From: an uncultured virus (IMG/VR IMGVR_UViG_3300036045_000006)
Taxonomy: Duplodnaviria > Heunggongvirae > Uroviricota > Caudoviricetes
Reading direction: 5' to 3' (one strand)
IMG/VR virus record: IMGVR_UViG_3300036045_000006
DNA length: 20,000 nucleotides
Shown here: positions 3,678-20,000 of the stretch, in pieces
Layout: each line of letters starts with the position of its first letter
Position numbering within the stretch: the first letter of the stretch is position 1
Position numbers and translations under genes: made by a program
Notes under the pieces: generated by a model
The model's database searches: none
The model's input: only the letters and a program-made list of their open reading frames with translations
Told to the model about the DNA's origin: nothing

Positions 3678-3680
3678 GGC

Positions 3681-4486: not shown

Positions 4487-4521
4487 GGAACAGATGTTCC
4501 ACTTACTCGTCTATTGTATCA
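4487..4521 (-). promoter_or_regulatory. Extended -10 promoter with downstream LexA-type box
   Basis: Minus strand TGaTACAAT (4521-4513), then GGAACATCTGTTCC (4500-4487), AGGAG, and ATG 4472. Confidence 0.7.
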
Positions 4522-4527
4522 TTGACT

Positions 4528-4854
4528 TCAGACATGATCCATCGATCCAAGGCTTGCAATCAGCGCGTTGATCTCACATTGCCACCAATATCCACGACCA
4601 CCGGCGACGATGCGTCCATCATCAATACGATTCATTAAACAGAATTGACGCGACCATCGTTGACTGGCATTTTCCAGTCTGTGAAATTCTCCACTGATCA
4701 AACAACCGCCATCTCGAATGAGATAGACATCGGTTGTCACGAGTTCATATGGATACCTTCCATCACAAGTGTGCAATTGCCGATTGACTTCAATCGATAT
4801 TAGCAATAGGCATAAACTGAGAAAGATCAGCACTATCTTTGCGCAGCGAGACAT
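4528..4854 (-). CDS. Small exported or membrane-anchored Cys-containing protein (~108 aa), AT-rich
   Basis: ATG 4854 overlaps the end of the hub gene; hydrophobic N-terminus IVLIFLSLCLLLISI; four further Cys residues. Confidence 0.55.
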   Translation of the reverse strand: MSRCAKIVLIFLSLCLLLISIEVNRQLHTCDGRYPYELVTTDVYLIRDGGCLISGEFHRLENASQRWSRQFCLMNRIDDGRIVAGGRGYWWQCEINALIASLGSMDHV

Positions 4855-6608
4855 GAACCACGCACCCGGACATTCAATTCGATAATTCCCTGAGATCCCC
4901 AAGCCTGGATCATAGATTGATTAATACCGACCTCTGCATTACGTTGACCACAGCGAAACTCAATTGAATGATCCCGGTAGATACTACCGGTTTGTTCAAA
5001 CAAAATATCAGTAATGTCACATTCCACATTGATCGACTGATTAACGCCACTTGCCCACGGCCCGCCAAGTCGATTTGTATATTCTATTCCGTTGATGAAT
5101 AACCTGAGATCAGACGGATACTCCGTGTGAATATTGCAGCGCCAGTAACCCGCGACATAAGATATCCCAGGCGGCGGAACCTCGACAAATGATAAAAAGT
5201 TTGATGTGTTGTCCAATGGTCGCGTCTTAAATCTGATCCTCACCCGATCAATTTCGGTGATCTCTTCGTCAATTTCTAACTTAAAGACAGCCCATTTGTG
5301 ATCAGAAAAAGCAAAGTTCCCATCGTTCATAATGGTATCTGTCCAGGTGTTCTCGCTCCATATAGCCGTGTTCTTCGGTTCGCGGTGGATCAGTCTTACA
5401 TCCTCCATCGTCTGCACCACGGCGCTCATGGTGTCCTGGTGCGGACGATCCACGTTGCTGATCTCCAGATCCAGCGACAGCCCGTCTGGTGACAGACGCT
5501 CGCTTGCTGAGGTGATATAGAACATCCCGCTGACGGTCTCGTCAGCGAATACGTCGTCATATGCACTGCGTACATCGCCGTGATACCACAACCGGATCAT
5601 GTCGCCGGTACGCACCGTCCTGGCGCACTTGGTGACGGATACCCGGTAGGTGGTTTGTTCAACAGCGGCCCGTGCCATCCATTCCCTGCCAGCCTGCAAA
5701 AGCGCATTGGATGATCGTCGTTTGCCCTCGACGGAGTTGTTGATCTGCGTGATCTCTTTGAATGTGACAGCCATCTCCCGGCGTCCGTAGCGCGCAATGC
5801 TGGCCGCGTCCTCGATGTAATAGTAGGTCTTGCCGTCATCTTCCACGCGGCTTTTCACGTCGGGGTCGTCGCTGTATTTCAACGTCAGCGCTGCTGTACC
5901 CTCCCCATTGCCAAACACAAACGCCGCATTGGTCACGTCTTCGCTGTCGGCCAAAATTTGCATCGAGGTGATAAACGCCACGTCCGCATTATCGTTCTGG
6001 TATGGCACAGCAGAATTGATGTTCATGAGTGTGAGATTGATGTCGGTGGCAAACCGGCCCATCTCAAGCACCGGCGCGCCCAGCATCGGCTGGGGCAGCT
6101 TCTCTCGAAGGTGCAGCCCTAACTGCTTCGCCATCGTCTGAAGAATTTTCAGGCTGGATGCGCCGGTGTAACGCCCGTCGATCGTGACGTTTTCCAGACC
6201 CGCTTCCAGTTCCACCCGCCAGCCAGCGCGGGCCGCGACCTGGTTGGCCGCAACGTTAAGGAGCGTATCGTCAAAGACTGCAAAGCTCACGACATGTTTC
6301 AGATCGGCCAGCGCATCCGTGCCTGTGCCGCTGCGCGTCTTGCCGCCGGTGGAGACATTCTTGCGCAGCTTCTGAATAGTGCCCCGGCAGAATTCGCGGT
6401 ACTGGCCGTTCTGCTCGACCTTAATCTGCACGCGCGTTTCGGTTGTAAAAAACCGCATCGTGCGCTCATCCCCGACCGGCACGTCGATCTGAATCGTGCC
6501 CGCACCGTCCAGCTTGCGGTTGACGCTGGCCGAGAGAATCTTGATCGGCCCTTCCGCGTCCGGGTGCTTCACCCATCCAGGTGTATATACATCCGCCAGG
6601 ATATTCAT
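4833..6608 (-). CDS. Tail tip / baseplate hub (Tal-like) protein with variable C-terminal domain
   Basis: 591 aa downstream of TMP-Dit. N-terminal SVNRKLDGAGTIQI, VTNAAFVFGNGEG, SIARYGRRE and TGDMIRL motifs are typical of siphovirus hub proteins. Confidence 0.7.
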   Translation of the reverse strand: MNILADVYTPGWVKHPDAEGPIKILSASVNRKLDGAGTIQIDVPVGDERTMRFFTTETRVQIKVEQNGQYREFCRGTIQKLRKNVSTGGKTRSGTGTDALADLKHVVSFAVFDDTLLNVAANQVAARAGWRVELEAGLENVTIDGRYTGASSLKILQTMAKQLGLHLREKLPQPMLGAPVLEMGRFATDINLTLMNINSAVPYQNDNADVAFITSMQILADSEDVTNAAFVFGNGEGTAALTLKYSDDPDVKSRVEDDGKTYYYIEDAASIARYGRREMAVTFKEITQINNSVEGKRRSSNALLQAGREWMARAAVEQTTYRVSVTKCARTVRTGDMIRLWYHGDVRSAYDDVFADETVSGMFYITSASERLSPDGLSLDLEISNVDRPHQDTMSAVVQTMEDVRLIHREPKNTAIWSENTWTDTIMNDGNFAFSDHKWAVFKLEIDEEITEIDRVRIRFKTRPLDNTSNFLSFVEVPPPGISYVAGYWRCNIHTEYPSDLRLFINGIEYTNRLGGPWASGVNQSINVECDITDILFEQTGSIYRDHSIEFRCGQRNAEVGINQSMIQAWGSQGIIELNVRVRGSCLAAQR

Positions 6609-7792
6609 CAGTCGCTTTCCACCATCATGGTGCGGATCAATATGGATTTGGCAACTGCCGCCTGTGTATAGGCGATCACCACCAGCGACAGGTTATCCGT
6701 CGCGGCGGGCAGGGTGGCGGACAGCGACGTCTCGGTACTGTCGTTGACGCTAAAATAAGCCTGCCCCATACTGGCGTCGTACCGCACGCGCAGCAGGTAT
6801 CTCGTGTTGGTTGCAATCGATCCAATCGGCGCGCCCAGGGTTTGCGCCACGCCGGTGCAGGTGACTGGCCGCCAGCCGGCGTCGCCAGCCGTTGTCGAAT
6901 AACGGAAACCGAGGTAAGGATTTGACAACGTATCGCTGTTGGCAACGGTTGTATTAAACAGGCCGACATAAATGCGAACTGCTGAAATGTCCGCCCCGGT
7001 GCGAATCACAGCTTCGAATGTAGGGCTGTGACCAATGCGAACCGCTTGCAGCGTATTCAGCACAAATGCCAGGCCGCCAGCCGATGCAGGGGTTGCATAG
7101 GCTGTGTAGTGGCTGTCGGACTGATGAGATGATGTGGCTGTGCCTCCTATCGTTGCGCCCTCCGCACCCAGAGGGACGACACCGGCATTGGACGACTGAT
7201 ACCCCCACCACCGGCGTCGCGCGAAACCCGGCAGCACGTCCAGCCGCCGCGTGCTGCCGACCGTCACCAGGCTGCGCGACGGAACGACGAGATCAGTGAT
7301 GCTGGTATTTGCGGCCGGGATTTGCGTCACTAGGCGGAACGACATGTCCTGCGCGATGCCGACCACATTCGCAAGTCCTGCGAATTTGTAAAGCGCCAGG
7401 ACTTTGTTCGTGTCGTTGAGGACATAATCCTGCTGGTTTTGCAGGTAGATATTGCCCCCGACGGCCAGGTGCTTCACGGTGATAACGCGCGCATTATTCT
7501 TGATGCGAATGTAGATCACCTGGCCGTCAACCATGCTGTTGATGGCAACCAGATCGTCGGATCCGACCAGGCCAAATGTGTCCAGAATGTGCTGGCTCAG
7601 CGTCGCGGTAAACGCGCCGTTGACATCCAGCGTGACTTCGGTCCCGGCCTGGGACGGCCCGTTGACCAGGCGCCTCGTCGGGATAACGCCCGTCTGCATG
7701 TTCTTGATCGCAGTTTCCAGACCCGCAAAATTGGTATTGAGCGGGTCGTTATCGGCGATCCCATCCGGGATTACGGTATAGTAGTCAGGCAT
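6608..7792 (-). CDS. Minor tail protein / putative tail fibre or receptor-binding protein
   Basis: 394 aa after Dit; N-terminal LNTNFAGLETAI anchor-like helix; Thr/Ala/Gly-rich beta C-terminus resembling a lectin-type fold. Confidence 0.6.
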   Translation of the reverse strand: MPDYYTVIPDGIADNDPLNTNFAGLETAIKNMQTGVIPTRRLVNGPSQAGTEVTLDVNGAFTATLSQHILDTFGLVGSDDLVAINSMVDGQVIYIRIKNNARVITVKHLAVGGNIYLQNQQDYVLNDTNKVLALYKFAGLANVVGIAQDMSFRLVTQIPAANTSITDLVVPSRSLVTVGSTRRLDVLPGFARRRWWGYQSSNAGVVPLGAEGATIGGTATSSHQSDSHYTAYATPASAGGLAFVLNTLQAVRIGHSPTFEAVIRTGADISAVRIYVGLFNTTVANSDTLSNPYLGFRYSTTAGDAGWRPVTCTGVAQTLGAPIGSIATNTRYLLRVRYDASMGQAYFSVNDSTETSLSATLPAATDNLSLVVIAYTQAAVAKSILIRTMMVESD

Positions 7793-7795
7793 TTT

Positions 7796-8659
7796 TTAAC
7801 TCCATGCGTCATAAAAACCGACGCGGATTGCAGCGGGTGCGGCCAGCGTGCCATTCAGCTGAAGGGTGTTTGCGCCCGGCTCCAGGCGCAGGTATCCGGT
7901 TCCAGCAATGACATCGGTCAGGTGGTAGGCGCTAACCAGTCCAGTACTGGTGAACTGAGTGATACTCAGATCCCAGCCGTTGATGATCAATTTATCCCCG
8001 GCCGCCAGGCTGCTGCGCCAGAAGAAGCCATCGACCTCACGTCCGTTTTCTATGCGCGCGATCCGAATGTTGCTGGACGTACCGGTCGCCGTCAGTGTCA
8101 GATGAATCGGCGTATCGGTATCGCCGTTGTTGGTCAGCGTCCAGGTATCGCCGTCGCCTCCCGTGGTGCTGAGTTGCGGTGCGGCCCAGTTGTTTTCACC
8201 CCACAGCGTGCCGTCGCCCCACTCCCACCCTGATCGGCTGTACCAGCGGGGATCCTCCGCGCTGAAATTGATGCGCACCGGCTGGATCAGATCGGTGTGT
8301 TTGTGCAACTGCTCGTTCATGCCGATATTGGCGACCTTGCACACGCAGAAGCGCGCCGGACGGGTGGCGTGCGCGGGCTTCATCCAGAGCGTGCCGCGTC
8401 CCCAACGTTCCATACGTTTCACATCGCGGCGGAGATCGTCCATGCCGTCGCGTAAATACGCCCGCAGATTAAAGTCCAGCGAGATCGATCCGATTTCTTT
8501 GCGATAAGGCCGATCCTGTTCCTGATCCACGCCGCCATCCATGCCAACGGCGCGCTGCATCCGCTGAAGCACCTGCGTGAAATTGGTCGTCAGCGCTTCC
8601 TGATAGATCGGAAACGTGTACTGGTTGCCCTTTGCGCGGAAATACAGAATCTGCGTCAT
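7796..8659 (-). CDS. Distal tail protein (Dit)
   Basis: ATGA overlap with the TMP stop; F.AEDPRWY, LTNNGDTDTPI and LRLEPGANTL motifs are characteristic of siphovirus Dit. Confidence 0.8.
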   Translation of the reverse strand: MTQILYFRAKGNQYTFPIYQEALTTNFTQVLQRMQRAVGMDGGVDQEQDRPYRKEIGSISLDFNLRAYLRDGMDDLRRDVKRMERWGRGTLWMKPAHATRPARFCVCKVANIGMNEQLHKHTDLIQPVRINFSAEDPRWYSRSGWEWGDGTLWGENNWAAPQLSTTGGDGDTWTLTNNGDTDTPIHLTLTATGTSSNIRIARIENGREVDGFFWRSSLAAGDKLIINGWDLSITQFTSTGLVSAYHLTDVIAGTGYLRLEPGANTLQLNGTLAAPAAIRVGFYDAWS

Positions 8660-11600
8660 CCCTGCGCTCTCCTTAACTGCTCGATTTGATCCCACGCGCC
8701 GCGTCCGGCCGCCTGACCTTCCTCATAGGAGTTGGCGTAGACGTTCATCGAACCCACCAACGGCGACTGCTGCTGGCTGCCCGCTGCAATGGCGCTCAAC
8801 ACCCGGTCAAAGTTGGGAATAAACTGACCGTTTGTCGAGGGAACAAAGAGTTCGGGCTGTGCCCCAGCCCCAATCATATACGCCTGACCGGCCCATCCCG
8901 GACCGCCGCTGTCTCTGAAGATGCCAGAGATACCGCGCCCGACATCACGCAGGAAACCGCCCGTGTTGTCTATGCCGCGCAGCACGCCCGTTCCGCTCCG
9001 GAACGGACTGGCCGCTTCAACCGCATTGATCGCGCCGCCGACGGTGCTGCTAATTCCATTCACGACATCACCCACTGTGCCTGCCACCCGCTGCACCACC
9101 TCGACGATCGACTCGATCAGGTCGATCACGGGCTGAATAATATTGGTACTGACAAAATTGAAAACCGCCGACAGCGAATCCCGGAACAGATTAATGCCGA
9201 CAGACACCGCTGACCAGATACCAGCGAGGATGTCGATCAGTCCTTGGATTGCCGGTGTGATGACCCCGGTGATCACGCCTTCGATGATCGGCCAGCCGGT
9301 GGTGGTGAACCAATCGATCAGACCCTGGATGACCGGGCTGACCAGGTTCCAGATGTCCTGCAGGATTCCGATGAAGGTCTGAATAATGGGAATAGCGACG
9401 TTGTTAATAAAGTCCAGCGCCAGCGGCAGTCCGGTCGTAATAAACCAGTCGACCAGGAAGGTGATGATCGGACCGACCACCTCCCAGATGCCGCGCAGGA
9501 CGTTGATGAACTGGCCGATCGCGGGAATGACCGTGCCGGAAATAAAGTTGAGGATCGCCGGCAGCGCGTCCTGGAGGAACCAGGTAGCCAGTGCTGCTAA
9601 CGCGGGGGCGACGACCGCCCACAGTCCGGCCAGCGTGTTGATGACCGTCTGAATAAGGGGCAGCAGTTGATCCCGGATCACCGCCACGATCGCGGGCACG
9701 GCTTCGGTCAGGAACCAGTTGGCGATCTGCACCAGCGCGGGAGCGACCACCGCCCAGGCATTCGCCAGGAACTGGAAGAAGGATTGAATCGCGGGGATGA
9801 CTGTCCCGGTGATGAACGCGGCGATCGCGGGCAGCGCATCGACCACGAACCAGGTATACATCGCTTCCAGCCCAGGCCGGATCACCGTCTCCCAGGCCGT
9901 CCCCAGCCACTCGAAGAAACTGCGGATAGCAGGCAGCGCCACGTCGATTACAAAATTTACAATCGCGGGCAGACCTTCAGACACAAACCAGCTGACCAGT
10001 GCCTGAAAGCCAGGGATCACGATTTGTGTGATGAACGTCGCCAATGTCTCAAAGACGCCGCGCACAGTGTTGACCACCCGTTGCGTCGCCTGATATAAGC
10101 TCTGCACGACTGCGATCGCCCGATCGCGTGCCATGCCGAAGCTGACCAGCACGCCCTCCAGCGTGCTTTGCATGGTCTCGTCCATTGTGCCTTCGCCAAA
10201 AATTCCTAAGATGGCTTCATGCAATCCGAAATCTCTGAGGTAGGCGAAAAACGTGTCAATCGCAAATACAAGCCGCTCGAATCCCCTGGATAACGTGTCA
10301 ATCACCGGCTGCACCAGGTCTCTGATGCCGCCCAGGTTAGATTGAAATGCAGCGTACAATCCTGCTATCGCGCCGACGATCAGCCCGATCGGACTGAACA
10401 GCAAACCAAAAGCCGCGCCCAGCCCGCCTATGGCTGTGCCCACCGCCGTAACGAACCCGCCGATACCGATCAGGATCGGACCCAGCACGCCCAGCGCCGC
10501 GACGACCACGCCGATCGTGCGCGCCAGGCCGGGGTTCTCCTGCACCCATCCCGTGATGGCGCGGATGACTGGACGCACCGCGCCAACAATATCGTTCAGC
10601 ACGGGCAGCATGGCCTGACCAATCTCAATCGCCAGTCCGCTGATGCTGGACTTCAGCAGGTCAAACTGCGCGGCGGCGCTCTCCATCTGAATTTCGCGGG
10701 CCGCCGTCGTCGCGCCGTCGATGCCATCAACGTAAGTTTCAGAAAATTCTGTGAAATTCTCCGAGGCCAGCGCTGTGACGCCGCGCAGGGCTTCCACCGA
10801 GCCGACCATCGGCGCGATCGCGTCCTGACCGAATTCACCGGCCAGCGCCTGGTACGCGCCGACCAGCCCCAGCTGCTCGACTGCCGCGCGTCCACTGGCG
10901 AAGCCCAGGCGCTGCAACCCGGCCCGCATTCGCTCGTTGGGGTTCAGCAGCGCGGACATCATCGCGCCTAACTGCGTGGTGGCCTGAGATGCGGTATTGC
11001 CCTGCGTGGTGAGGTAGGCCGCCGATGCGCCCAAATCCTCAAGCCTGATCCCCATGGAATTGGCCAGCCCGGTAACCTGCGGCAGCGCGGAGGCGAACTG
11101 ATCCATCGTGCCGACACCCATCCCAACCGTTCGGGTCAGCACGTCGGAAGCAAACGCTGCCTGATCCGCGCTGTACCCGTAACTGTTCATGATGGAGATC
11201 ATGGCGTTGGTGGCGCCGCCGAGGTTGGCGTTACCCGCTTCGGCCAGCGCGATCGCGTTGGTCAGGATGTCCATGTGGGTGGAAGCATCCGCGACGCCGC
11301 CGACCACATCGTACATCGCGTCCGCGACCGACTGAGGCCCGAAACGACTTTCCTCGCCCATCCGTTGCAGTTCGTTGGACATGGCCTGCATTTCGGACAG
11401 CGGACGGCCCATCACCGCGGCAATGTTGGCGATCGATTCCTCGAAGTTCACCGCGCTTCGAGTGGCTACGCCCAGACCCGCCGCGAACGGCGTAAACGTC
11501 TGGGTCAGCTGCGATCCCAACCCACTTAACTGCTGACCGACACCGCGCAGACCGTCGCCAATCCCGGACAGGCCAGCGGAAAACGCGCGCCGGGCTTCGT

Positions 11601-11682
11601 CCATCCCCGCGCGTACACCGCTGGCATCAATGACCACACGCCCGTAGGCGGTTCCGAGATTCGCGCCGCTGTCCATCGACAT
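8656..11682 (-). CDS. Phage tail tape measure protein (TP901-like core)
   Basis: 1008 aa, Ala/Gly-rich. N-terminal LGTAYGRVVID, TP901-type core (FEESIANIAAV...A.DVL...G), W/F amphipathic repeats, C-terminal GGP...YMIG..PELFVP..G..IPN. Confidence 0.92.
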   Translation of the reverse strand: MSMDSGANLGTAYGRVVIDASGVRAGMDEARRAFSAGLSGIGDGLRGVGQQLSGLGSQLTQTFTPFAAGLGVATRSAVNFEESIANIAAVMGRPLSEMQAMSNELQRMGEESRFGPQSVADAMYDVVGGVADASTHMDILTNAIALAEAGNANLGGATNAMISIMNSYGYSADQAAFASDVLTRTVGMGVGTMDQFASALPQVTGLANSMGIRLEDLGASAAYLTTQGNTASQATTQLGAMMSALLNPNERMRAGLQRLGFASGRAAVEQLGLVGAYQALAGEFGQDAIAPMVGSVEALRGVTALASENFTEFSETYVDGIDGATTAAREIQMESAAAQFDLLKSSISGLAIEIGQAMLPVLNDIVGAVRPVIRAITGWVQENPGLARTIGVVVAALGVLGPILIGIGGFVTAVGTAIGGLGAAFGLLFSPIGLIVGAIAGLYAAFQSNLGGIRDLVQPVIDTLSRGFERLVFAIDTFFAYLRDFGLHEAILGIFGEGTMDETMQSTLEGVLVSFGMARDRAIAVVQSLYQATQRVVNTVRGVFETLATFITQIVIPGFQALVSWFVSEGLPAIVNFVIDVALPAIRSFFEWLGTAWETVIRPGLEAMYTWFVVDALPAIAAFITGTVIPAIQSFFQFLANAWAVVAPALVQIANWFLTEAVPAIVAVIRDQLLPLIQTVINTLAGLWAVVAPALAALATWFLQDALPAILNFISGTVIPAIGQFINVLRGIWEVVGPIITFLVDWFITTGLPLALDFINNVAIPIIQTFIGILQDIWNLVSPVIQGLIDWFTTTGWPIIEGVITGVITPAIQGLIDILAGIWSAVSVGINLFRDSLSAVFNFVSTNIIQPVIDLIESIVEVVQRVAGTVGDVVNGISSTVGGAINAVEAASPFRSGTGVLRGIDNTGGFLRDVGRGISGIFRDSGGPGWAGQAYMIGAGAQPELFVPSTNGQFIPNFDRVLSAIAAGSQQQSPLVGSMNVYANSYEEGQAAGRGAWDQIEQLRRAQG
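9180..9990 (-). repeat. Six ~45-aa amphipathic repeats in the tape measure protein
   Basis: Units WF....LP.I..FI.....P.I......L...W..V.P beginning WFVSE, WFVVD, WFLTE, WFLQD, WFITT, WFTTT. Confidence 0.8.
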
Positions 11683-11700
11683 CGGCCAGTATCCTTAAAT

Positions 11701-11734
11701 AAAAAAGCGCCAAGAGTTGACACACTCTTGGCGC
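11701..11734 (-). terminator. Leader intrinsic terminator upstream of the tape measure gene
   Basis: Minus strand GCGCCAAGAGT-gtgtca-ACTCTTGGCGC-TTTTTT (11-bp stem plus U-tract). Confidence 0.8.
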
Positions 11735-11750
11735 GCTTCAGGTTATCTCA

Positions 11751-11769
11751 ATTATAGCACAGTCGTTCT
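11751..11769 (-). promoter_or_regulatory. Extended -10 promoter overlapped by LexA-like box (one mismatch)
   Basis: Minus strand AGAACGACTGTGCTATAAT: TGcTATAAT plus AGAAC-GACT-GTGCT. Confidence 0.65.
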
Positions 11770-11802
11770 ATGCACAAACGGCGAAGCGATCCGCTTACGC
11801 CG

Positions 11803-12099
11803 TCACATGACAAGTGTGCTTCTGCCCTGCGCCAGCGCCAGCGCGGTCAGCGAGATCACCCCGCTGCGCGCGCCGATCTGCGCCCGCCCTTCCAGGATGT
11901 CTTCCAGGGTAAACATCGGTTTGCCCTGCTTGTCGCGTTCGTCGAGTTTGTGCTCGACGTAACGGCCATAGACACCCACGGCCCGGTCGACCATAAAGGC
12001 CAGCCAGGGATCCTCAATCGCCAGCAGCAGGCTCGGCCTCGATCCGTAGTCCTTCGCTGTGAGGTGCAGCGTCCACACGGCCAGCTTGTTCTGCAGGAA
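11803..12099 (-). CDS. Tail assembly chaperone extension (gpT-like), probably expressed by +1 frameshift
   Basis: Overlaps the chaperone 3' end in the +1 frame and has no good own RBS/start. AKDYGSRPSLLLAIEDPWLAFMVDRAV is a typical pre-TMP motif. Confidence 0.7.
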   Translation of the reverse strand, partial: FLQNKLAVWTLHLTAKDYGSRPSLLLAIEDPWLAFMVDRAVGVYGRYVEHKLDERDKQGKPMFTLEDILEGRAQIGARSGVISLTALALAQGRSTLVM

Positions 12100-12517
12100 A
12101 CGCCTCCGCCGCGTCCCTCCCGCGCGGCATCGACCAGTTCATCACCCACATTTTGTCCGTCGAGTCGAGGTCGCTGTAGGCGATTTCGCCCGCCTCGTAG
12201 TCCGGCTCGCGGCTGGCTGGCGCGATGCGCGGTTCCACAAATGCCAGGCGCACCAGCTTTTCCATGAACGTGCCCAGCCCGGCCAGGCGTTTACGATCCT
12301 CGCTGTCGTTGCCGGTGAACATCTCCACGTCGCGATGCTCGCCGGTGATCTCGCGGGCGACCATACCGGTCAGCCAGTCGGGGACATCGCCGTTATCGGA
12401 GGACATCACCAGACCGACGATGTCGGGCTTCTTCAGCCGCGCGACCTTCCCCGACGGCAGCACTTCCTCAAAGGTGACGGGCTTCCAGAGCGCAGCAGGC
12501 GTTACGGCGCGGTTCAT
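12014..12517 (-). CDS. Tail assembly chaperone (gpG-like)
   Basis: Lies between tail tube and TMP; LPSGKVARLKKPD...FVEPRI...DLD..DK motifs; probable start ATG 12517. Confidence 0.8.
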   Translation of the reverse strand: MNRAVTPAALWKPVTFEEVLPSGKVARLKKPDIVGLVMSSDNGDVPDWLTGMVAREITGEHRDVEMFTGNDSEDRKRLAGLGTFMEKLVRLAFVEPRIAPASREPDYEAGEIAYSDLDSTDKMWVMNWSMPRGRDAAEAFPAEQAGRVDAAPHSEGLRIEAEPAAGD

Positions 12518-12519
12518 GG

Positions 12520-13116
12520 TCAATCCCACAGGTCTTCCAGATACGACTGGAATGCCAGCTGCGTAGCGGGCAACGCGGCGGCCGTTTCATTGGTGCGCAG
12601 CAGGTACAGTTCGCGTTTGATCACGGATGGCGAGAAGAAGCTGAACGCTGCCTCGCCGCGGCGGAACCGGTTCTGTTCCACATCAAAGGCCGGGTAGGTT
12701 TCCAGCAGGCACTTGGGGAAAGCGACGACACAGTTCGCGCCGTTGAGCGCCGCGTACTCGACAATCATGCCGAAGTAGGGTAGACCCTGGCCGCCGGTTT
12801 TCGGCTTGGCGATCGTATAACGATTTGGCGTCGTACCATATGTCTGTGCGGTGATGCCCAGCATCGGGACACTGGACCCAGTCAGGTCGAGCGACCCCAG
12901 CATCAGCGTGCCTGTGCCCTTCTTGATGATGCTGATCGCCTCTACCGTCTGGCCGCCGCTGTTGAGTTCGTCGTTATCGGCCTCAAATTCAAACGAGACG
13001 CGGTCGATGTAGTCGACAAAAACGGGCGTGCCGTAAACGATGTCGGGGTCGGTCGCGGTGATGGCCGCGACGACCGCCGCTTTGGGGTTGTAAATCACGT
13101 CGCCATATTTCGGCAT
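12520..13116 (-). CDS. Major tail (tube) protein
   Basis: 198 aa, positioned after the tail terminator and before the chaperones; acidic and beta-rich. Confidence 0.75.
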   Translation of the reverse strand: MPKYGDVIYNPKAAVVAAITATDPDIVYGTPVFVDYIDRVSFEFEADNDELNSGGQTVEAISIIKKGTGTLMLGSLDLTGSSVPMLGITAQTYGTTPNRYTIAKPKTGGQGLPYFGMIVEYAALNGANCVVAFPKCLLETYPAFDVEQNRFRRGEAAFSFFSPSVIKRELYLLRTNETAAALPATQLAFQSYLEDLWD

Positions 13117-13119
13117 GGA

Positions 13120-13560
13120 TTATGTCCTCACGTGTACTACTTGAATGCGGACCATCTGAGTCGGTCGCCCGACTTCCCTGGCGGTAAAGCGGCGGGTTCC
13201 GCCGACTTCGATTGTGTGCGCCAGGGCCACGTCGTCGGTATGCCAGTACTGGTTATCGAGCGCTTTGCCAATCGCTGACGCGCCGGCCTGAAGTGCGCTG
13301 ATACCCGTCTCGGCATATACGTAAATCTCGATAAAGCCCTGAAACGCCTGCACGCTCTGGGGCGCCAGACGCGCATACTCGCCGAAATTCATCACCGCAT
13401 AAGGCAGCAGCGTCACCCCGTCTGATGCACGTGGCGCAGCGGTCGCGCCGCCGCCGTCGTAAGGGAGTGTATCGTGATCCTTCACACCGCCAGGCAGCGC
13501 AGCGATCACCCCTGCATTGGTATTGAGCGCGTTCAACAGGGACTCGCGAAACGTCGCCAT
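13120..13560 (-). CDS. Tail terminator-like protein
   Basis: 146 aa; LPYAVM and IEIYVYA pattern; synteny. Confidence 0.65.
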   Translation of the reverse strand: MATFRESLLNALNTNAGVIAALPGGVKDHDTLPYDGGGATAAPRASDGVTLLPYAVMNFGEYARLAPQSVQAFQGFIEIYVYAETGISALQAGASAIGKALDNQYWHTDDVALAHTIEVGGTRRFTAREVGRPTQMVRIQVVHVRT

Positions 13561-13910
13561 CAGACAAAAATCCCGGCCAGCATCTGCGCGATCGCAGTCA
13601 GATGCGCTTGAATGGTCGGCCAGACCACAGCGTAGCGGCCTTCGTTGGCAACTTCGAGATAAATCCCGTAATCAACGCCGTGCGCCAGGTAAAGCGCCAC
13701 CACGTCCTGGCCCAGCCGCTGCGTAAAGGCATACAGCGACTGACGCGCGTTGCCGGTACGGTCGGTCCAGGGCGCGTTGGCTTTGGCGTAAGCCTCAAAC
13801 ACCCCGGCGAAATAGGTGGCGACCGCGTCGATCGCGTCGTACACCCGGCCTTCATAGGTGTGCATGGCGGTGATCATCGCGCTATCGCCACGCCATTCGA
13901 TGTGACTCAT
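13560..13910 (-). CDS. HK97 gp10-like tail completion / neck protein
   Basis: AKANAPWTDRTGNARQSL...HGVDYGIYLE...GRYAVVWPT signature. Confidence 0.85.
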   Translation of the reverse strand: MSHIEWRGDSAMITAMHTYEGRVYDAIDAVATYFAGVFEAYAKANAPWTDRTGNARQSLYAFTQRLGQDVVALYLAHGVDYGIYLEVANEGRYAVVWPTIQAHLTAIAQMLAGIFV

Positions 13911-14278
13911 GACAGCGCCTCACAGCGCGCCTGCACTTCGCCGGGCTGGGTGACGATGGCGATCACACGGTACTGGATGCCGTTGTGAGCGAAGCGATCG
14001 TTAGCCCGGATGTCGGTATCCTCCACGTCGGGATGACCCCGCACGCCAAAGATCACCGCTTCCTGCCGACCGGACTGCACCGTACTCTCGCCCTCGACCT
14101 GGCGGTGTGTGTTGCTGATCTCGATTCGCACGGTTTGCGAATTCAGCGCGACGCCGCTGCGCACGAGAACGATGTCCGCCGGGACATCCTGAATGCAGCG
14201 CCAGGCGTCACCGGCCTGAGACGCGATCGCTACCGCGCCGGTGTAGCTGGAGTCGATATAAGCGTCCAGGTCAGGCAT
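13907..14278 (-). CDS. Head closure (stopper) protein
   Basis: 123 aa; DTDIRANDRF.HNG.QYRVIAI motif; synteny. Confidence 0.7.
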   Translation of the reverse strand: MPDLDAYIDSSYTGAVAIASQAGDAWRCIQDVPADIVLVRSGVALNSQTVRIEISNTHRQVEGESTVQSGRQEAVIFGVRGHPDVEDTDIRANDRFAHNGIQYRVIAIVTQPGEVQARCEALS

Positions 14279-14651
14279 CCGGGAATTCCTTTTCCGGGCG
14301 GGGGCTGCCGCCCTTCAGGGTGAACCAGCGCGCACCAGATTCCCCCATCCCCTCGTCTTCCAGGATTTTGTTGAGCCGGGCCTGACGATGGCCGATCAGC
14401 TTGCCGAAGTGCGCGAATATCTGGCTGGCTTTACGCTGCGAATCGTTCTGCGTGTAATCCACGCGGGCTACCGCCTGCGCCTGGAACTGCTCCAGCGCCA
14501 GAATGCGCACGTATTCCTCTTGTGCCTTTGCGCTGGCCGGGTAGTCGGCGGCGGCGCGGACATAGAAATCGTCAATCTCCGCCGCCGATAACGACTCCGG
14601 CGAAGCCCCGACATCGGCCCGGACACGGTTACGCTGTAGCTCGGTGGGCAT
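14271..14651 (-). CDS. Head-tail adaptor (gp6/gp15-like)
   Basis: Probable start ATG 14651 (MPTELQRNRVRADVG...LSAAEIDDF); helical; synteny. Confidence 0.65.
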   Translation of the reverse strand: MPTELQRNRVRADVGASPESLSAAEIDDFYVRAAADYPASAKAQEEYVRILALEQFQAQAVARVDYTQNDSQRKASQIFAHFGKLIGHRQARLNKILEDEGMGESGARWFTLKGGSPRPEKEFPDA

Positions 14652-15636
14652 GTCGGTCGCACGCCTCCTGATAAATACCGTACACCTGCCGTGCGAAGCG
14701 GTCCCAGGTGTACCGGCTGCGCACATACCGGCTGGCGATGCGTGCCATGAACTGTGCGTGTTCCTGACGTTCGACCATCCGGGTCATCAGTTCAGCGAGG
14801 TGATCCTGATCGGGAATCGCCCACTGGCCCATGCCGCGCCATTCCGGATCGCTCGTCCAGGCATCGCCCAGCGTATACCGGAGCGGCCAGCCCCACAGCA
14901 TCAGGTCGTCCGCCGTGCCGCCAAAGTCGGTGGCGATCACGGGTCCGCCAGTCGCGGCGAATTCGCGCGGCGGAAAGCCGAAGCCTTCGGCGCTGGTGGG
15001 GAATACCATGCAGTCGGCGCGCGTGTATAACGCCGCCATCTGCGCCTCGCTGTAGGTGGCGCGGATGATCTCGATGTTGGCGTTGCGCACGTTGACCGGG
15101 AAATGCTGTGCTTTCACGATCAGCCTTACGTCATCCCGATCGCCGAAAGCCTGCACGAACGCCCACATCGCGACATGCCAGTTTTTGCGTTCGGCCCGAT
15201 CGCCGATGGCCAGGAACGTGTACGGCTTGCGATGCAGCGGTCGCTCCACATACTGGAACGTCTCGCTGATGCCGAGCGGCACGCAGTACACCGGCACCGT
15301 CACACCCGCCGCGCGAAACACCTCGACATTCCAGCGGCAGGGGACGATCACCGCGTCCATCTGATTGAGCGTCTCCACCCACCCGGGCGGCAGCACCGTC
15401 CCCTCAAACATCGTGATCGCCACACGCGGGCCGGTGCTGGCAACAAGCGGGCCGAAATGCTCGAAGTGCGAGGGGTAGCCCAGCAGAACCCCACCGGTAC
15501 AGGGCACGAGATGCGCGCCCTCCTGACCGATGCGATTCACATGCAGCCCCATCTGTTCGAGACGGCCCGCCAGTTCCAAAGCGAGGCGGCCGTAGGAGAT
15601 TTCGATCTCCCAGTTGAACGCCGCGACGTTGATCAC
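14629..15636 (-). CDS. Glycosyltransferase, GT-B fold (GT4-like)
   Basis: SYG N-terminus, TMFE, D.VIVPC.WN, VPLGI, RKN, ADCMVFPTSAEGFGFPPREFAATGGPVIATDFGG (E-x7-E), YTW. Confidence 0.9.
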   Translation of the reverse strand: MINVAAFNWEIEISYGRLALELAGRLEQMGLHVNRIGQEGAHLVPCTGGVLLGYPSHFEHFGPLVASTGPRVAITMFEGTVLPPGWVETLNQMDAVIVPCRWNVEVFRAAGVTVPVYCVPLGISETFQYVERPLHRKPYTFLAIGDRAERKNWHVAMWAFVQAFGDRDDVRLIVKAQHFPVNVRNANIEIIRATYSEAQMAALYTRADCMVFPTSAEGFGFPPREFAATGGPVIATDFGGTADDLMLWGWPLRYTLGDAWTSDPEWRGMGQWAIPDQDHLAELMTRMVERQEHAQFMARIASRYVRSRYTWDRFARQVYGIYQEACDRHAHRATA

Positions 15637-15639
15637 GGA

Positions 15640-16692
15640 TTAGCTGTTGGCGGTCGCCGTCGCCAGGGTCGGCCAGGTAATCTCTTCGGTGGTCGCCGCG
15701 ATGTTGGCGTACACGCCAAAGTAGGTGTCCCAGATCACCTTGTCGATCACAAACCGGCTCATGTCGCCATCGCCGCGCTGCTCTCGCAAAGGCAGCTTCA
15801 CCCAACTCTGGAAGTCCGACATGCGCATCGACATATCGATCAGATACGCCTTGCCTGCGGTCACGCCAGGATAGTTGCGCACCAGCTTGCCGCGCTGGCT
15901 GGCCCACCCGTTATAAACGATGACCCGATCGATCATGCTGAGCACATCACCCTGAAGCGTGATGCCCTGCTGCGCCACCGCTGTCAACGCGCGATGCACA
16001 TTGAAGACATCACTTTGCGAAATCAGCAGCGTGTACGGCCCACGGCGCGGATTGGTCGTATCTTCGGTCGCGTTCACCACCGCTTTTTCCAGCAGACGCA
16101 GGTAGCGTGCCGGCAGCTCTTCCTTGGAGCTGTACACCACATCGGTCGCCGCCGTTTGGTTAGCGGACGTGTAGGTGTAATTGAGGAACGGCGCGAAGTG
16201 GTAATGGTTCAGCATCGCGCTGTATGCGATACCGGCCCACCGTTCAATGAGAGGCAGATTGACATACTCGTTGAACAGAAACAGGTCTTCGGTGTACTCG
16301 ATGCCCAACCCGAGGTGCATCAGAGAAACCGATTTACTGCCGCTGTTGAGCGTGCCCATCTTGACCTCGCCGCCTTCCTGAATCTGTTCAAAGATCAGGC
16401 CGCCTTCACGCATCTGGTAAATCGTAACGTTCCGAGGCAGTCCGGCATCCTGAACGGTCTGGTAGAGGCTGTCGTACAGAATAGGTTCTTCCTGCCTGCC
16501 TGCCTCAACCTCATATCGCTGACGGTTAAACCACTCATCCGGAAACGTGCCGGTGGAAAGAAATTCCGCCATCATGTTTTCGCCGGAGCGGTAAACACGG
16601 AAATGATCGAGCAGGTTGAAGCCCTCGCGGAATTTCACCTGCGGTTTTGATGCTTGCTTTTCAAGCAGAATGGACTTACTGATCCACTGCAT
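15640..16692 (-). CDS. Major capsid protein
   Basis: 350 aa following protease/scaffold and decoration genes; EGGEVKMG and GIEYTEDL HK97-fold-like motifs. Confidence 0.75.
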   Translation of the reverse strand: MQWISKSILLEKQASKPQVKFREGFNLLDHFRVYRSGENMMAEFLSTGTFPDEWFNRQRYEVEAGRQEEPILYDSLYQTVQDAGLPRNVTIYQMREGGLIFEQIQEGGEVKMGTLNSGSKSVSLMHLGLGIEYTEDLFLFNEYVNLPLIERWAGIAYSAMLNHYHFAPFLNYTYTSANQTAATDVVYSSKEELPARYLRLLEKAVVNATEDTTNPRRGPYTLLISQSDVFNVHRALTAVAQQGITLQGDVLSMIDRVIVYNGWASQRGKLVRNYPGVTAGKAYLIDMSMRMSDFQSWVKLPLREQRGDGDMSRFVIDKVIWDTYFGVYANIAATTEEITWPTLATATANS

Positions 16693-16696
16693 GGCT

Positions 16697-17077
16697 TTAG
16701 ATGCCCTCCGGGTTCAGGATGCCCGTGACGACGTTATTGCTATCTTTCGGGCCGGTCGAGATGAACAGGCAGTGTTTGCCCGCGCCGCCAGTCGTCGAAT
16801 AGGCCGCGTCCGGAATGATGTTGGCGGTGATATCAGCCAGCGTCACGTAAACCCTGACGCCAGCGCTGGCGATCGTTAGCCCGGCGGGAACCGTGAACTG
16901 ATATTCAAAGCGGTCGATGGTAATCGCGCGGAAGTCGCCCGACTTGCCGCTGGCCATGGTCACGCCGAAAAACGACCGCGCGTGAATCACAGTCGGCGCA
17001 TCGACATCCTCCACCAACTGAAGGGTGACGGCCTTGCCGTCCGATTCCTTGAACGTGTTACCTACGTTGACAGGCAT
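16697..17077 (-). CDS. Head decoration / cement protein (DUF2190-like)
   Basis: 126 aa between scaffold and capsid; SDGKAV...FFGV...G pattern. Confidence 0.6.
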   Translation of the reverse strand: MPVNVGNTFKESDGKAVTLQLVEDVDAPTVIHARSFFGVTMASGKSGDFRAITIDRFEYQFTVPAGLTIASAGVRVYVTLADITANIIPDAAYSTTGGAGKHCLFISTGPKDSNNVVTGILNPEGI

Positions 17078-17562
17078 TACTTCTTCTCCTCACTGGGGAA
17101 GATGAACGGCGAGTCGGCTTCCACTTTCGTCGGAGCCACGACGACCGGGCGAGTGCGGGCGGGTCCCATCTCGGAGGCAATTGCCGCTGCGAGTAGTGCC
17201 TTGATTTCCGGACGGTCCAGCACGCCTTCAACGGCGCGGGTGGCTTCGGCGCGGGTGGCCGGTTTTTCCGCCGCCACCAGCATCGCGATCACCGGACGCT
17301 GAGACTCCAGCTTCACGGCATCGGCGATCTGGTTCCTGATAAATCCGTCGAGCAGTTCGCGGTTTTCCTTGCGGAGATCGGCGTTCTGTTCGTGCTGTGA
17401 CCGGACGGCCTTGTACGCGCCATCGGTCTCGACGTTAAGCAGGGTGGCAATCTTCTGGAGGTCTTCCAGCAGCGGCCTCTGCTCCTTCAACTGACGTTCC
17501 AGGGATTCGACCAGCGTGGAGAGCCGGTCGCGCTCAGCCTGGACTTCCTGAATTTCCGGCAT
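17077..17562 (-). CDS. Nested in-frame scaffold protein (161 aa)
   Basis: Internal AAGGAGG (17574-17568) 5 nt before in-frame ATG 17562 (MPEIQEVQAERDRL), at the start of the coiled-coil. Confidence 0.7.
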   Translation of the reverse strand: MPEIQEVQAERDRLSTLVESLERQLKEQRPLLEDLQKIATLLNVETDGAYKAVRSQHEQNADLRKENRELLDGFIRNQIADAVKLESQRPVIAMLVAAEKPATRAEATRAVEGVLDRPEIKALLAAAIASEMGPARTRPVVVAPTKVEADSPFIFPSEEKK

Positions 17563-18708
17563 AACGTCCTCCTTCGCCGGCACCAACTGAGTATTGGGGG
17601 ATGTTGACGTATTCAAGGTTTCCGCTGTGGGCACTGGCACAGAGGCCATGTCGGGCAGACCCAGCTGTTCGGCGTTGGCCAGATCGATCGTCCACAGGGT
17701 GTAGTCGATGATCTCGTTGCCTTCGTAAACCGGGTTTATCCCAAAAATCGAGGTACCCACCTTCGCGTTGGCTGCGTTGGCGGCTTCGAGGTGGATGCGC
17801 GCTTCGCGGGTGTAGGTGAAGCATTTGCCCCACGCCATCTGGGACGCTTCATCCCAGACCGCCGCCACCCAGCGGATCGCGGGGAGTTCATATTTACTCC
17901 CCATTTCGTAATCGGCCAGGTGACCCCAGCGGCCCTCTGGCCGGCGCTTGTTGACCTGGTTGACCAGGCTCATGACCGCTTCCTGGCTGTACTTGTGACC
18001 GTTGCGGCTGATGGTCGCTTTGCCGATCGGGCGCGTATCGAAGATCAGGTTTTCGCCGATCGCGCTGCGCAGCGCCTCCAGATTGAAGTCTTCAGGCAGC
18101 GGGATGTCCGGGACGGCATAGCCGCTGACCGCTTCAGCCAGCGTGTACATCAGCTTCGCGGGTGACTTGCCCGCGGCGATCGCTTCCTGTACCGGCACGC
18201 TTTCCAGCAGCGGCCAGGTCTGCACCGCGTCAAATGACCCCTCCGCGGTGAGCGTCACGGCCTTGGCCTCGACGCCAATGGGCGACATGACCTCAAACAG
18301 GTCCTGCCGACCGGGCGCATAGGCCAGGGTGATGTGCGGGCGGTAGGCCATCGGGTAGCTGCTCGCTCCAATGGTAAGGCCGCGCGCCACGGCTTCGTAG
18401 TACAGGCTGTACTGGAGATAAATCAGCGGCGGCACATACTGCATGAGCAGCACGACCGCGCTTTCATCATCGTGGTAGAAACTCGTGATGTACTGGCCAG
18501 ACGCGCCGAACAGCGCCACCCGATCGTTCGGCACGCGCATATCGGTCAGGTCCTGACCCTTGTCGTCTTCCAGGTACAGCAGGGTGATGTGAAACTCAGC
18601 AGGATCAACAAATCTCGTGCCTTCAGGCATGATCCGTCTGAGGAAATTCTGTGCCTCCACCAGCGCCGGGTGGTTTGGCAGCGGGATCGAGAAATATGCT
18701 TTCGGCAC
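17077..18708 (-). CDS. Fusion: 2H phosphoesterase + prohead protease + scaffold
   Basis: GCAGGAG RBS with GTG start. Two HxT motifs (FHITLLY, PHITLAY) in the first ~165 aa. The middle has SRNGHKYS, WGH, VGTSIFG and IDLA protease-type motifs. The C-terminus is coiled-coil. Confidence 0.8.
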   Translation of the reverse strand: MPKAYFSIPLPNHPALVEAQNFLRRIMPEGTRFVDPAEFHITLLYLEDDKGQDLTDMRVPNDRVALFGASGQYITSFYHDDESAVVLLMQYVPPLIYLQYSLYYEAVARGLTIGASSYPMAYRPHITLAYAPGRQDLFEVMSPIGVEAKAVTLTAEGSFDAVQTWPLLESVPVQEAIAAGKSPAKLMYTLAEAVSGYAVPDIPLPEDFNLEALRSAIGENLIFDTRPIGKATISRNGHKYSQEAVMSLVNQVNKRRPEGRWGHLADYEMGSKYELPAIRWVAAVWDEASQMAWGKCFTYTREARIHLEAANAANAKVGTSIFGINPVYEGNEIIDYTLWTIDLANAEQLGLPDMASVPVPTAETLNTSTSPNTQLVPAKEDVMPEIQEVQAERDRLSTLVESLERQLKEQRPLLEDLQKIATLLNVETDGAYKAVRSQHEQNADLRKENRELLDGFIRNQIADAVKLESQRPVIAMLVAAEKPATRAEATRAVEGVLDRPEIKALLAAAIASEMGPARTRPVVVAPTKVEADSPFIFPSEEKK

Positions 18709-18727
18709 GCTCCTGCCTCATCGAAAC

Positions 18728-18763
18728 AAAAAAAGCGCCCAGAGTTAGGCACTCTGGGCGCTC
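18728..18763 (-). terminator. Leader intrinsic terminator with tandem GAGNNCC motifs, upstream of the protease gene
   Basis: Minus strand G-AGCGCCCAGAGT-gccta-ACTCTGGGCGCT-TTTTTT (12-bp stem plus U-tract). Confidence 0.8.
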
Positions 18764-18779
18764 ATGTATTCAGCCATGC

Positions 18780-18809
18780 ATTGTAAGGCACGAACTTATG
18801 TTCTGTCAA
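18780..18809 (-). promoter_or_regulatory. Sigma70-type promoter with LexA-type box in the spacer
   Basis: Minus strand TTGACA-gaacataagttcgtgcct(18 nt)-TACAAT; box AGAAC-ATAA-GTTCG at 18804-18791. Confidence 0.8.
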
Positions 18810-18810
18810 T

Positions 18811-19017
18811 TCAGGGCCGATTTTCCCTTAATACTCCGGGATTATCCGGCCAGGTAAACAGCCTGCGGCAGTGCCGGTTCGGGCACTTGATTTCAAGTAC
18901 GCTGCCCGCGGCGGCTTTGCAGGCCATCTTGTGGCAGTACGGACAGCGCACCTCGATCAGTTCAGCCGTCGGCGGCTGGCGATCCTTGATCTTTTGCAGC
19001 GTCTCTTTCCAGGTCAT
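18811..19017 (-). CDS. Mu Com-like zinc-finger regulator (68 aa)
   Basis: EVRCPYCHKMACK...LEIKCPNRHCRRL matches the Com pattern (RCxxCxK...EIKCPxxC); ATGA overlap with the GT2 stop. Confidence 0.8.
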   Translation of the reverse strand: MTWKETLQKIKDRQPPTAELIEVRCPYCHKMACKAAAGSVLEIKCPNRHCRRLFTWPDNPGVLRENRP

Positions 19018-19691
19018 GACGCCCTCCACTTCTCAATAAATTTTGCGCGACTGGCATTGGCGATGTCGTGATTGACCGGGTGGGACGGGTGCACCAGGCC
19101 GATGTCGCCCGCCGCACGCAGACGGAAACCTGCCGCGCGGGCCTGATAACAAAAGTCCACGTCCTCCCAGTAGTTGGGATTGAACCGTTCGTCGAAGCGC
19201 AGGCCGGTGTTGAAGACGCGCCCGGCCACCGCCATCCAGCCGCCCGACACATAATCCGGTGTCTGCGCGCCCTGGATCGGCAGCGTATGGTAATCCCCGG
19301 TCACGTAACGGCCTTCAACACCGCAGATGTCTGTCAGCCCGCGCGCGATCGGCCCGGCCAGGCTGAACAGCCACGAGTGGCGAGCGACCCACAGGTCGTC
19401 ATCCAGGAAGACGATGATATGGTCGTCCTCCAACCCGCTGGCTTTGATCCTGTCGATCAGAAAGTTGCGTCCGCCGGCGCAGCCCAGATTTTTTTTGCTG
19501 TGATACCACTGGCAGCGCTGCATATAGCGGCCTTTATACGCCAGCTTATACTCCTGCTGAAGGACATGAATACTGGCCTTCGTCGTATTGCAGGCCGGTT
19601 CAATGGTGGACAGACAGCGCATGATCTCTATCGGACGGTTCATGGTGACAATCGCCACATGAATCACCGTTGGTTTAAGAAGTTCGTTCAA
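19014..19691 (-). CDS. Glycosyltransferase family 2 (GT-A fold)
   Basis: IVTMNR, NLGCAGGRN, VFLDDD (DxD), DYVSGGWM, FDERF...WEDVDFCYQARAAG. Confidence 0.9.
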   Translation of the reverse strand: MNELLKPTVIHVAIVTMNRPIEIMRCLSTIEPACNTTKASIHVLQQEYKLAYKGRYMQRCQWYHSKKNLGCAGGRNFLIDRIKASGLEDDHIIVFLDDDLWVARHSWLFSLAGPIARGLTDICGVEGRYVTGDYHTLPIQGAQTPDYVSGGWMAVAGRVFNTGLRFDERFNPNYWEDVDFCYQARAAGFRLRAAGDIGLVHPSHPVNHDIANASRAKFIEKWRAS

Positions 19692-20000
19692 GCGGCAAAA
19701 ACCCCTTCAAATTCGTTGGCGAATGCGGCCGAAAGTGTCGCGCCGAGCAGCCACGCGGCGAAGCGCGGCCCAGCCGCTGGGTTCAGGTGCGGCGTGTCGG
19801 GCATCAGGCCGGGGTCTTCCAGCATCAGGCGGATCTCCGCCGTGATCTGCGCCGGGTTATCGGCCATCGCCGACGCTGCGCCGCACAGACAGTGCGGATG
19901 CGCGGGCGGGATGCGCGCGCTGTCGTAAGGGTAGGGCTCCTTCAGCCGCTCCCGGCCCATGCCGAGCGTTGCCAGATCGTCGCACACATCGCGTTTCGGG
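19688..20000 (-). CDS. Minor head protein (MuF / SPP1 gp7-like), C-terminal part; 5' end lies outside the window
   Basis: DVCDDLA...PYP....PPAHPHCLC motif typical of phage head morphogenesis proteins. Confidence 0.75.
   Translation of the reverse strand, partial: PKRDVCDDLATLGMGRERLKEPYPYDSARIPPAHPHCLCGAASAMADNPAQITAEIRLMLEDPGLMPDTPHLNPAAGPRFAAWLLGATLSAAFANEFEGVFAA

Follow-up and report, generated by a model that had tools for sequence, protein, structure and literature searches.

A 2H Phosphoesterase Domain Fused to the Prohead Protease-Scaffold of an Uncultured Tailed Phage: A Candidate Head Cargo

Architecture of the Fused Gene

We analyzed a 20,000-nucleotide stretch of DNA from an uncultured virus of the Caudoviricetes (IMG/VR record IMGVR_UViG_3300036045_000006; hereafter, the window), the structural operon of which contains a gene that joins a 2H phosphoesterase domain to the N-terminus of a prohead protease and scaffold. 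This gene is a single open reading frame (ORF) on the minus strand, running from a GTG at 18708 to the stop at 17077 without an in-frame stop, and encodes 543 amino acids (Table 1). The operon has a siphophage-like order, in which MuF-like, glycosyltransferase and Com-like zinc ribbon genes are followed by the fusion, a probable decoration gene and the major capsid gene, with neck, tail, tape measure and Dit genes lying 3' of the capsid gene. The original prediction, made from the sequence alone, described two intact HxT motifs in some 165 N-terminal residues, in frame with protease and scaffold domains, and both points hold (H40/T42 and H125/T127, within one ORF); its interval of 17560..18708 is correct for residues 1–383 of this minus-strand gene but leaves the scaffold, residues 383–543, outside.

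Table 1. Coordinates of the fused gene, its parts and its neighbors in the window
Feature	Coordinates	Strand	Basis
Whole ORF P0001: 2H phosphoesterase, prohead protease, scaffold	17077..18708	-	ORF calls, homologues
2H phosphoesterase domain, residues 1-167	18208..18708	-	AlphaFold model; structural matches to LigT/ThpR, Acb1, Usb1; Pfam scores under cut-offs
First HxT motif, H40-I-T42 (EFHITLLYL)	18583..18591	-	H40 in 39/39 aligned fusions; Ser replaces T42 in 2
Second HxT motif, H125-I-T127 (RPHITLAYA)	18328..18336	-	Kept in 38/39 aligned fusions
V173-Q-E175, candidate self-cleavage site that would free the 2H domain	18184..18192	-	[VILAM]-x-E in 39/39 rows
Prohead protease domain, residues 188-365, T4 gp21/herpes assemblin fold	17614..18147	-	Structure matches, phrog_3219
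Protease residues H263, S320, D342	17920-17922, 17749-17751, 17683-17685	-	
E363, second candidate cut site	17620-17622	-	
Internal Shine-Dalgarno and ATG (M383), putative separate scaffold start	17560..17574	-	AAGGAGG at 17568-17574, 5-nt spacing
Helical scaffold region, residues 383-543	17077..17562	-	Long helices in model, weak PF06810, position
Probable head decoration protein, 126 aa	16697..17077	-	Position and size like phiCD508 gp48, BalMu-1 gp29
Major capsid protein	15640..16692	-	Profile match to PDB 9GAY gp49, E 1.6e-86
Sigma70-like promoter TTGACA-18-TACAAT and terminator-like hairpin, head-operon leader	18733..18809	-	
Com-like zinc ribbon gene, likely leader regulator	18811..19029	-	PF10122 over cut-off; same place in L004, L028
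C-terminal part of MuF-like head morphogenesis gene	19688..20000	-	L011:3894-5021; phrog_1657 E 1.2e-27

In a full-length AlphaFold model built from 11 sequences (mean predicted local distance difference test score, pLDDT, of 69), residues 1–161 adopt a 2H fold, and the 39 best rows from a structural aligner are all 2H-fold chains, over residues 1–164. With residues 1–161 as the query, Foldseek ranked the phosphodiesterase (PDE) of phage BCSR5 (9q2g, E 1e-5) before LigT (1iuh) and Acb1 (7t27/7t26); a second aligner gave drCPDase (5h7e; Z 15.1, root-mean-square deviation (rmsd) 3.2, 151 residues aligned), LigT (Z 14), Acb1 (7t26; Z 12.5, rmsd 3.1, 134 aligned) and 9q2g (Z 11.6). Structure prediction and Foldseek, the check proposed for the 2H assignment, thus bear it out, and the two HxT/S motifs and two-lobed fold that define the superfamily are both present. 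Both motifs are retained in 38 of the 39 aligned fusions, which are 26–44% identical to the query. Single-sequence searches of the PDB were too weak to name either the 2H or the protease domain. The language-model neighbors of the 2H domain are viral clusters, which we take as a lead only.

The 2H domain lies below membership for both Acb1 and LigT/ThpR, and is overall closer to the latter. Taken alone, it scores 24.3 bits against the Acb1 family (PF23474; cut-off 27), the top of 16 members, and the score against ThpR/LigT (TIGR02258; cut-off 65.7) is 26.9 bits; a related protein outside the 16-member set (P0036) clears PF23474 at 29.8 bits. In profile comparisons, the match to seven Acb1 sequences covers residues 14–135 only (E 1.9e-11), whereas that to twelve ThpR-named proteins covers residues 7–171 (E 1.9e-20), a comparison biased toward ThpR, as its set was drawn from matches to the query profile. 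The Acb1 label in the original prediction is therefore not sustained.

The determinants of Acb1 are the HxT tetrad, the aromatic residues Y12, W74 and F107, the lid residue W147, and E141 (Hobbs et al. 2022, PMC9117128). In the fusion, F6 (conserved in 90% or more), F77 (aromatic in 31/39 rows) and Y118 (36/39) correspond to the three pocket aromatics, but as F6 and F77 also occur in ThpR, only Y118 is telling for likeness to Acb1. A Trp conserved in ThpR (W92, alignment A9, in the strand that precedes the second lobe helix) is V86 here, as in Acb1 (V83), and the F/W-x-T-x-D-G turn of Acb1, counted by eye, is present in about 25 of the 39 fusion rows and absent from the query. The C-terminal lid of Acb1 (residues 145–152, with W147) is missing, the Acb1 profile match ending at residue 135, past which the chain forms a LigT-type C-terminal hairpin and then enters the protease. 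The place of Acb1 E141 falls at approximately L153, by register only and outside the aligned stretch, and none of these positions holds a conserved Glu in the 39 rows. The domain is, in short, a LigT-like scaffold with a partly Acb1-like pocket. It is possible that a lid is supplied from elsewhere in the chain, by analogy with 2H PDE-9, in which the lid is N-terminal (Doherty et al. 2025, 10.1101/2025.08.21.671373).

As originally proposed, the carrier of this domain is a predicted prohead protease, of the T4 gp21/HK97/herpes assemblin fold, with the proteolytic activity itself predicted from sequence and model. Residues 188–365, folded alone from 68 sequences (pLDDT 93.9) and compared with 48,161 chains, matched T4 gp21 best (5jbl; Z 9.7, rmsd 3.6, 125 aligned), followed by the herpes assemblins (varicella-zoster virus (VZV) protease 1vzv, Z 8.8), with the first unrelated row at Z 5.7. 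S234, H263, S320 and D342 are invariant in 68/68 aligned sequences, and the His–Ser spacing, by which the two enzymes were compared, is 57 here vs 55 in T4 (H85/S140). The gene lies between the portal/MuF and capsid genes, as is the case for prohead proteases, and the domain falls in phrog_3219 (E 6e-10), the family of phiCD508 gp47, to which it has a profile match with a probability of 98.7. This unfused homologue has been named a capsid protease and is reported from purified virions (Wilson et al. 2025, PMC11948020). On this assignment, phrog_3219, which is listed as of unknown function, can be identified as a gp21-like and probably Glu-specific prohead protease.

Residues 383–543 are modeled as long helices, and PF06810 (Phage_scaffold) gave weak matches in 2/55 relatives scanned. 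In addition to the Shine–Dalgarno sequence before M383, a purine-rich stretch precedes an ATG or GTG at a similar place in 6/6 related loci examined (3/3 and 3/3), which is supportive rather than proof, as these stretches were picked by eye and Glu/Lys codons mimic a Shine–Dalgarno sequence. Nested scaffold starts occur in lambda C/Nu3 and herpes UL26/UL26.5. A separate start at M383 would provide scaffold independently and in excess, and the stoichiometric co-expression originally envisaged would then stand for the protease, to which the 2H domain is tied 1:1, but not for the scaffold. No Shine–Dalgarno sequence was seen before M187, where a start between the 2H and protease domains would lie.

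Conserved Glu residues stand on either side of the protease. The linker behind the 2H domain is variable in length and sequence except for a [VILAM]-x-E motif, which, read by eye, falls within about 15 residues of the domain in every fusion row, and all 39 of these rows keep E363, which follows the protease. The capsid protein retains E43 after a variable N-terminus in 6/6 aligned sequences, and this may be a maturation site. Since T4 gp21 cleaves I/LxE motifs on the C-terminal side of Glu (PMC12991175), the conserved motifs point to Glu-specific self-processing, and self-cleavage at V-x-E175 that releases the 2H domain appears likely, which provides a plausible site for the autoproteolytic release suggested in the original prediction.

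Distribution of the Fusion and Its Genomic Setting

Runs X1/X2, possibly the source sample, contain the full stretch as a single contig. Run X3, which belongs to a second study, has a 616-base contig that covers 17697–18312 across the 2H–protease junction with zero differing letters. Unfused homologues begin right at the protease start of the window protein, as could be expected if assembly or gene calling had joined two genes; however, with no in-frame stop, a junction bridged by an independent study and dozens of independent fused homologues, such an artifact, named at the outset as something that would undo the proposal, can be given practically no weight. A true unfused form does exist in L012, where the upstream DNA is known, and in which a GIY-YIG-like endonuclease gene (5379-6014, recognized by eye) overlaps the unfused protease start, at the spot of the 2H domain.

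An N-terminal 2H domain was found in 4/10 non-self homologues in a first search. A full-length profile run against 1.84 billion representatives then gave 1,533 matches (427 at E 1e-30 or better), and among the best 150 of these 1,533, which make up the survey of homologous proteases that had been called for, this protease bears a complete 2H domain in 45 and a partial one in 2, the 2H domain is on another protease in 1, and 102 are without it. The 45 fusions comprise 31 from whole-profile matches (8 of them profile seeds), 12 from Pfam and 2 recognized by eye; the Pfam scan took in 55 of the 139 new proteins, and the remaining 84 have a protease match that starts by residue 49, too early to accommodate a 2H domain. 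Because the 2H part raises the profile score, the resulting 30% is an upper bound, the floor being approximately 11% (45/427) if there are no lower-ranking fusions. The 2H domains found on this protease family fall into three or more distinct sequence types. The protease of unfused L012 is 50% identical to that of the query, whereas those of fused L004 and L031 are 34–35% identical, so that the presence of the 2H domain does not track protease similarity, suggesting, from identities only, losses or repeated gains. We do not count P0009, which lacks the 2H domain and is 76% identical to the fused P0003, as a loss, because its 1,793-base contig may be cut. The 2H part was found in 0/10 cultured-phage records matching the protein, and a scan of GTDB genomes gave a single weak and probably spurious match.

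In other relatives, the N-terminal slot holds different small domains, such as Hva1-type Tudor domains and Cys-rich modules. Seven longer polyproteins of 712–819 amino acids (P0182, P0184, P0191, P0193, P0195, P0202 and P0209) carry additional parts set apart by x-E-M motifs: Cys-rich modules at the N-terminus, or other domains, without annotation, that lie between 2H and protease. In L033, the fusion (6001-7578) is followed by a capsid protein of a different type.

Searching proteins of 327–2000 amino acids with the 2H profile returned head-assembly proteins in 26/26 matches: 14 with this protease, 3 with another predicted prohead protease, and 9 portals (one also with MuF). The C-terminal region of the second protease type does not align with the present family, and its language-model features are S77/S78-like, again as a lead. 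What is conserved, then, is attachment to a head protein and not to this protease, and the originally proposed coupling of the domain to the protease specifically as an immune trigger is undercut by the presence of the same clade on portals. A word-seeded search for free-standing forms (93–329 amino acids) gave 178 matches; among the best 120 of these, the top one has the appearance of a broken-off piece of a fusion and the second is a 276-residue protein with another C-terminus, with scores dropping from 161 to 86 bits and then to ThpR-like proteins at ≤57 bits among the matches listed. The outcome hints, weakly given the type of search, that the clade seldom occurs in free form.

As to the wider setting, the head operon is preceded by a leader with, in order, a Com-like zinc-ribbon gene, a sigma70-like promoter, and a hairpin with GAGCGCC/GAGTGCC-like repeats and a U-tract (window 18700-19029 (-); L004 7867-8000; L028 1245-1665; L002 7468-7570). 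The promoter is present in 4/4 loci and an adjacent Com-like gene in 3/4. The hairpin of the window has a folding z of -4.3, and the U-tract is able to pair with the Shine–Dalgarno sequence; no Rfam match was obtained in the window, and the hairpin 7-mer by itself is not enriched there. This leader resembles an attenuator through which Com would control the late genes.

Two glycosyltransferase genes also lie within the head operon, a GT4 gene directly after the capsid gene (14629-15636 (-)), in the same place as in L002, L004, L031 and L033, and, behind MuF, a GT2-like gene (19014-19691 (-)); at these sites, relatives L004, L012 and L031 have methyltransferases and sugar-modifying genes. The position of the glycosyltransferases suggests glycosylation of the capsid or the DNA. 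Directly upstream of MuF, L011 encodes a 1,268-residue beta-helix/malectin/immunoglobulin (Ig) protein with long Pro-Ile-Gly repeats (88-3894), which occupies the spot of the portal gene in relatives L031 and L033, and the head module of the phage in the window seems to be rearranged. At the far end of the window, small plus-strand ORFs (15-2141 (+)) run toward the point where the structural/lysis operon (2188-20000 (-)) ends.

Proposed Role of the 2H Domain

Taking these observations into account, the reading that we tentatively prefer is that the 2H domain is a head-cargo enzyme, freed in the head and carried into the next host, with nucleotide immune signals as its target. The gene would then encode the protease-scaffold in a head module of the phiCD508 type, its N-terminus acting as a slot for cargo domains. 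Full-length 2H–protease–scaffold would be made late and in low copy, with bare scaffold produced in bulk from the internal start; the scaffold tail would bring the full-length chain into the prohead, where cleavage after Glu at V-x-E175 and T-x-E363 would leave the 2H enzyme, folded and 19 kDa in size, within the head. With its two intact HxT motifs, this enzyme is predicted to be an active, metal-free phosphodiesterase, and would most likely hydrolyze cyclic or 2'-5' oligonucleotide immune signals, both in the cytoplasm before assembly and after delivery with the DNA to the next host. Its action would resemble that of Acb1-type viral 2H PDEs, although it would come from a separate and head-associated clade. 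The patchy presence of the domain (45/150) and the other domains found in its slot are typical of conflict cargo and so support this reading, and the features of a head-associated effector fusion, namely a conflict enzyme on a head protein and an architecture that differs from one orthologue to another, are present. Phage 2H clades vary widely in substrate, and many clades beyond Acb1 are active on immune nucleotides (Doherty et al. 2025).

Several points weigh against the head-cargo reading. The domain scores under the Acb1 family cut-off, its profile is nearer to ThpR (E 1.9e-20, with the bias noted above) than to Acb1 (E 1.9e-11), its structure is tied or slightly nearer to LigT/ThpR (Z 14–15) than to Acb1 (12.5), and two structural groups of phage 2H enzymes were inactive on 18 nucleotides (Doherty et al. 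2025). Both catalytic His residues are lost in L033, in which the rest of the 2H domain is kept, as are the second in P0177 and the first in P0209. Motifs of the x-x-E type may arise by chance in an acidic linker, and the 39 rows in which they were read are related. Finally, an enzyme confined to the head in low copy may be too scarce to dampen a signal, and the reading takes for granted that the 2H domain is ejected.

A less probable alternative is that the 2H domain acts as an antidote, destroying, while heads are assembled in the infected cell, the signal of CBASS (an antiphage system that signals through cyclic oligonucleotides) set off by its own attached protease through cleavage of the activation loop of a CD-NTase (a nucleotidyltransferase akin to cGAS and DncV), with packaging being incidental. 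The literature premises of the original prediction are sound in this respect, both for Acb1 (PMC9117128) and for prohead proteases, which activate CBASS late in infection (PMC12991175). The fusion would ensure 1:1 expression with the protease, which seems to be Glu-specific like T4 gp21, and the clade occurs on two unrelated-looking protease types, with at least three 2H lineages on this one. However, coupling to a protease does not explain the portal fusions (9/26 long matches), a free late gene would be equally useful and give a higher copy number, as in T4, and the enzyme would be cut off from the cytoplasm once inside the prohead. The portal fusions and the second protease type favor head cargo over an antidote specific to the protease, although the two readings are not exclusive and are compatible with each other. 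A composite of them, in which a trigger masks itself through a signal degrader that is welded to the protease, released by Glu autoproteolysis, carried in the virion so as to arm the next infection from its outset, and drawn from a non-Acb1 clade that portals and two types of protease have acquired more than once, strikes us as doubtful.

Action on RNA ends, whether as a ThpR/LigT-like 2',3'-cyclic phosphodiesterase healing nuclease-cut tRNA or mRNA or as a Usb1-like RNase, we regard as unlikely, despite ThpR/LigT being the best structural and profile match, the retention of the LigT-type C-terminal hairpin that Acb1 lacks, and an RNase option being named first by Iyer et al. 2017 (PMC5512222). 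The shortfall against TIGR02258, the replacement of the ThpR-conserved Trp by Val86 and, as a lead, the viral language-model neighbors stand against it. No RNA ligase was found in relatives G001 (100% complete) and G002 (61%); in the complete G001, where positive controls worked, the search covered Rnl1, Rnl2 and RtcB. The RNA repair alternative put forward in the original prediction is thus weakened, on the strength of one complete relative. That the domain is instead a passenger, or a non-catalytic binding or spacer domain tolerated at a cleavable N-terminus, would account for its absence from most family members and for the decay in L033, P0177 and P0209, but is improbable given that both HxT/S motifs persist in nearly all of the fusions at such low identity to the query.

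Comparison with Known Systems

If the domain cleaves immune nucleotides, the head-cargo protein would join in one chain the triggering of CBASS by prohead proteases and the destruction of signals by phage 2H enzymes, and, if the proposal is true, it offers a simple construct for asking whether anti-defense enzymes load into heads via the protease-scaffold. Approximately 45 diverged and mostly intact 2H enzymes are, in addition, available for substrate screens. To our knowledge, known anti-CBASS nucleases are free proteins.

The general principle of 2H cargo on head proteins was already predicted in 2017, when 2H domains fused to MuF or portal proteins were described and an RNase or anti-nucleotide-signal role was proposed (Iyer et al. 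2017). The protease-scaffold carrier is an added variant: the main text of that paper does not name a prohead protease as a 2H carrier, the word "prohead" occurring solely in a reference title. According to Doherty et al. 2025, 13/75 phage 2H PDEs are found in multi-domain proteins, some with proteases; the main text does not discuss head proteins (with 0 occurrences of portal, capsid or fused), and Supplementary Table 2 may list protease fusions. Our literature search, outside of which supplements and most subscription papers fell, found no description of a 2H–prohead protease fusion.

Among individual systems, Acb1 (T4 gp57B, FBB1 Acb1; PDB 7T26/7T27, PF23474) shares the 2H fold, the HxT/HxT tetrad and the aromatics at F6, F77 and Y118, but is a free protein with the C-terminal lid residue W147, whereas the present domain is fused, has a LigT-type hairpin, and scores below the family cut-off. 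The 2H PDE-9 of Burkholderia phage BCSR5 (PDB 9Q2G) is its top Foldseek match, while LigT/ThpR (TIGR02258, PF02834; 5LDM, 5H7E) provides the best structural match and a full-length profile alignment that includes the C-terminal hairpin, and differs in that the domain here is far under the cut-off, has the conserved Trp replaced, is viral, and is fused to a head protein. On the carrier side, T4 gp21 has the same fold, with its His, Ser and Asp kept in the present protease, and phiCD508 gp47 (phrog_3219) is a homologous protease-scaffold between MuF and decoration/capsid genes, in a phage whose capsid protein gp49 is also homologous; gp47, however, is without a 2H domain and matches the protease-scaffold part only. 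The closest precedent for the arrangement as a whole is the polyvalent proteins of Iyer et al. 2017, in which a 2H domain likewise sits on a head protein. Those proteins have no linked RNA ligase, and here none was found in relatives G001 and G002; the present clade also occurs on portals; the difference is that the carrier here is a protease-scaffold, the candidate cut sites and internal scaffold start of which give a concrete loading route.

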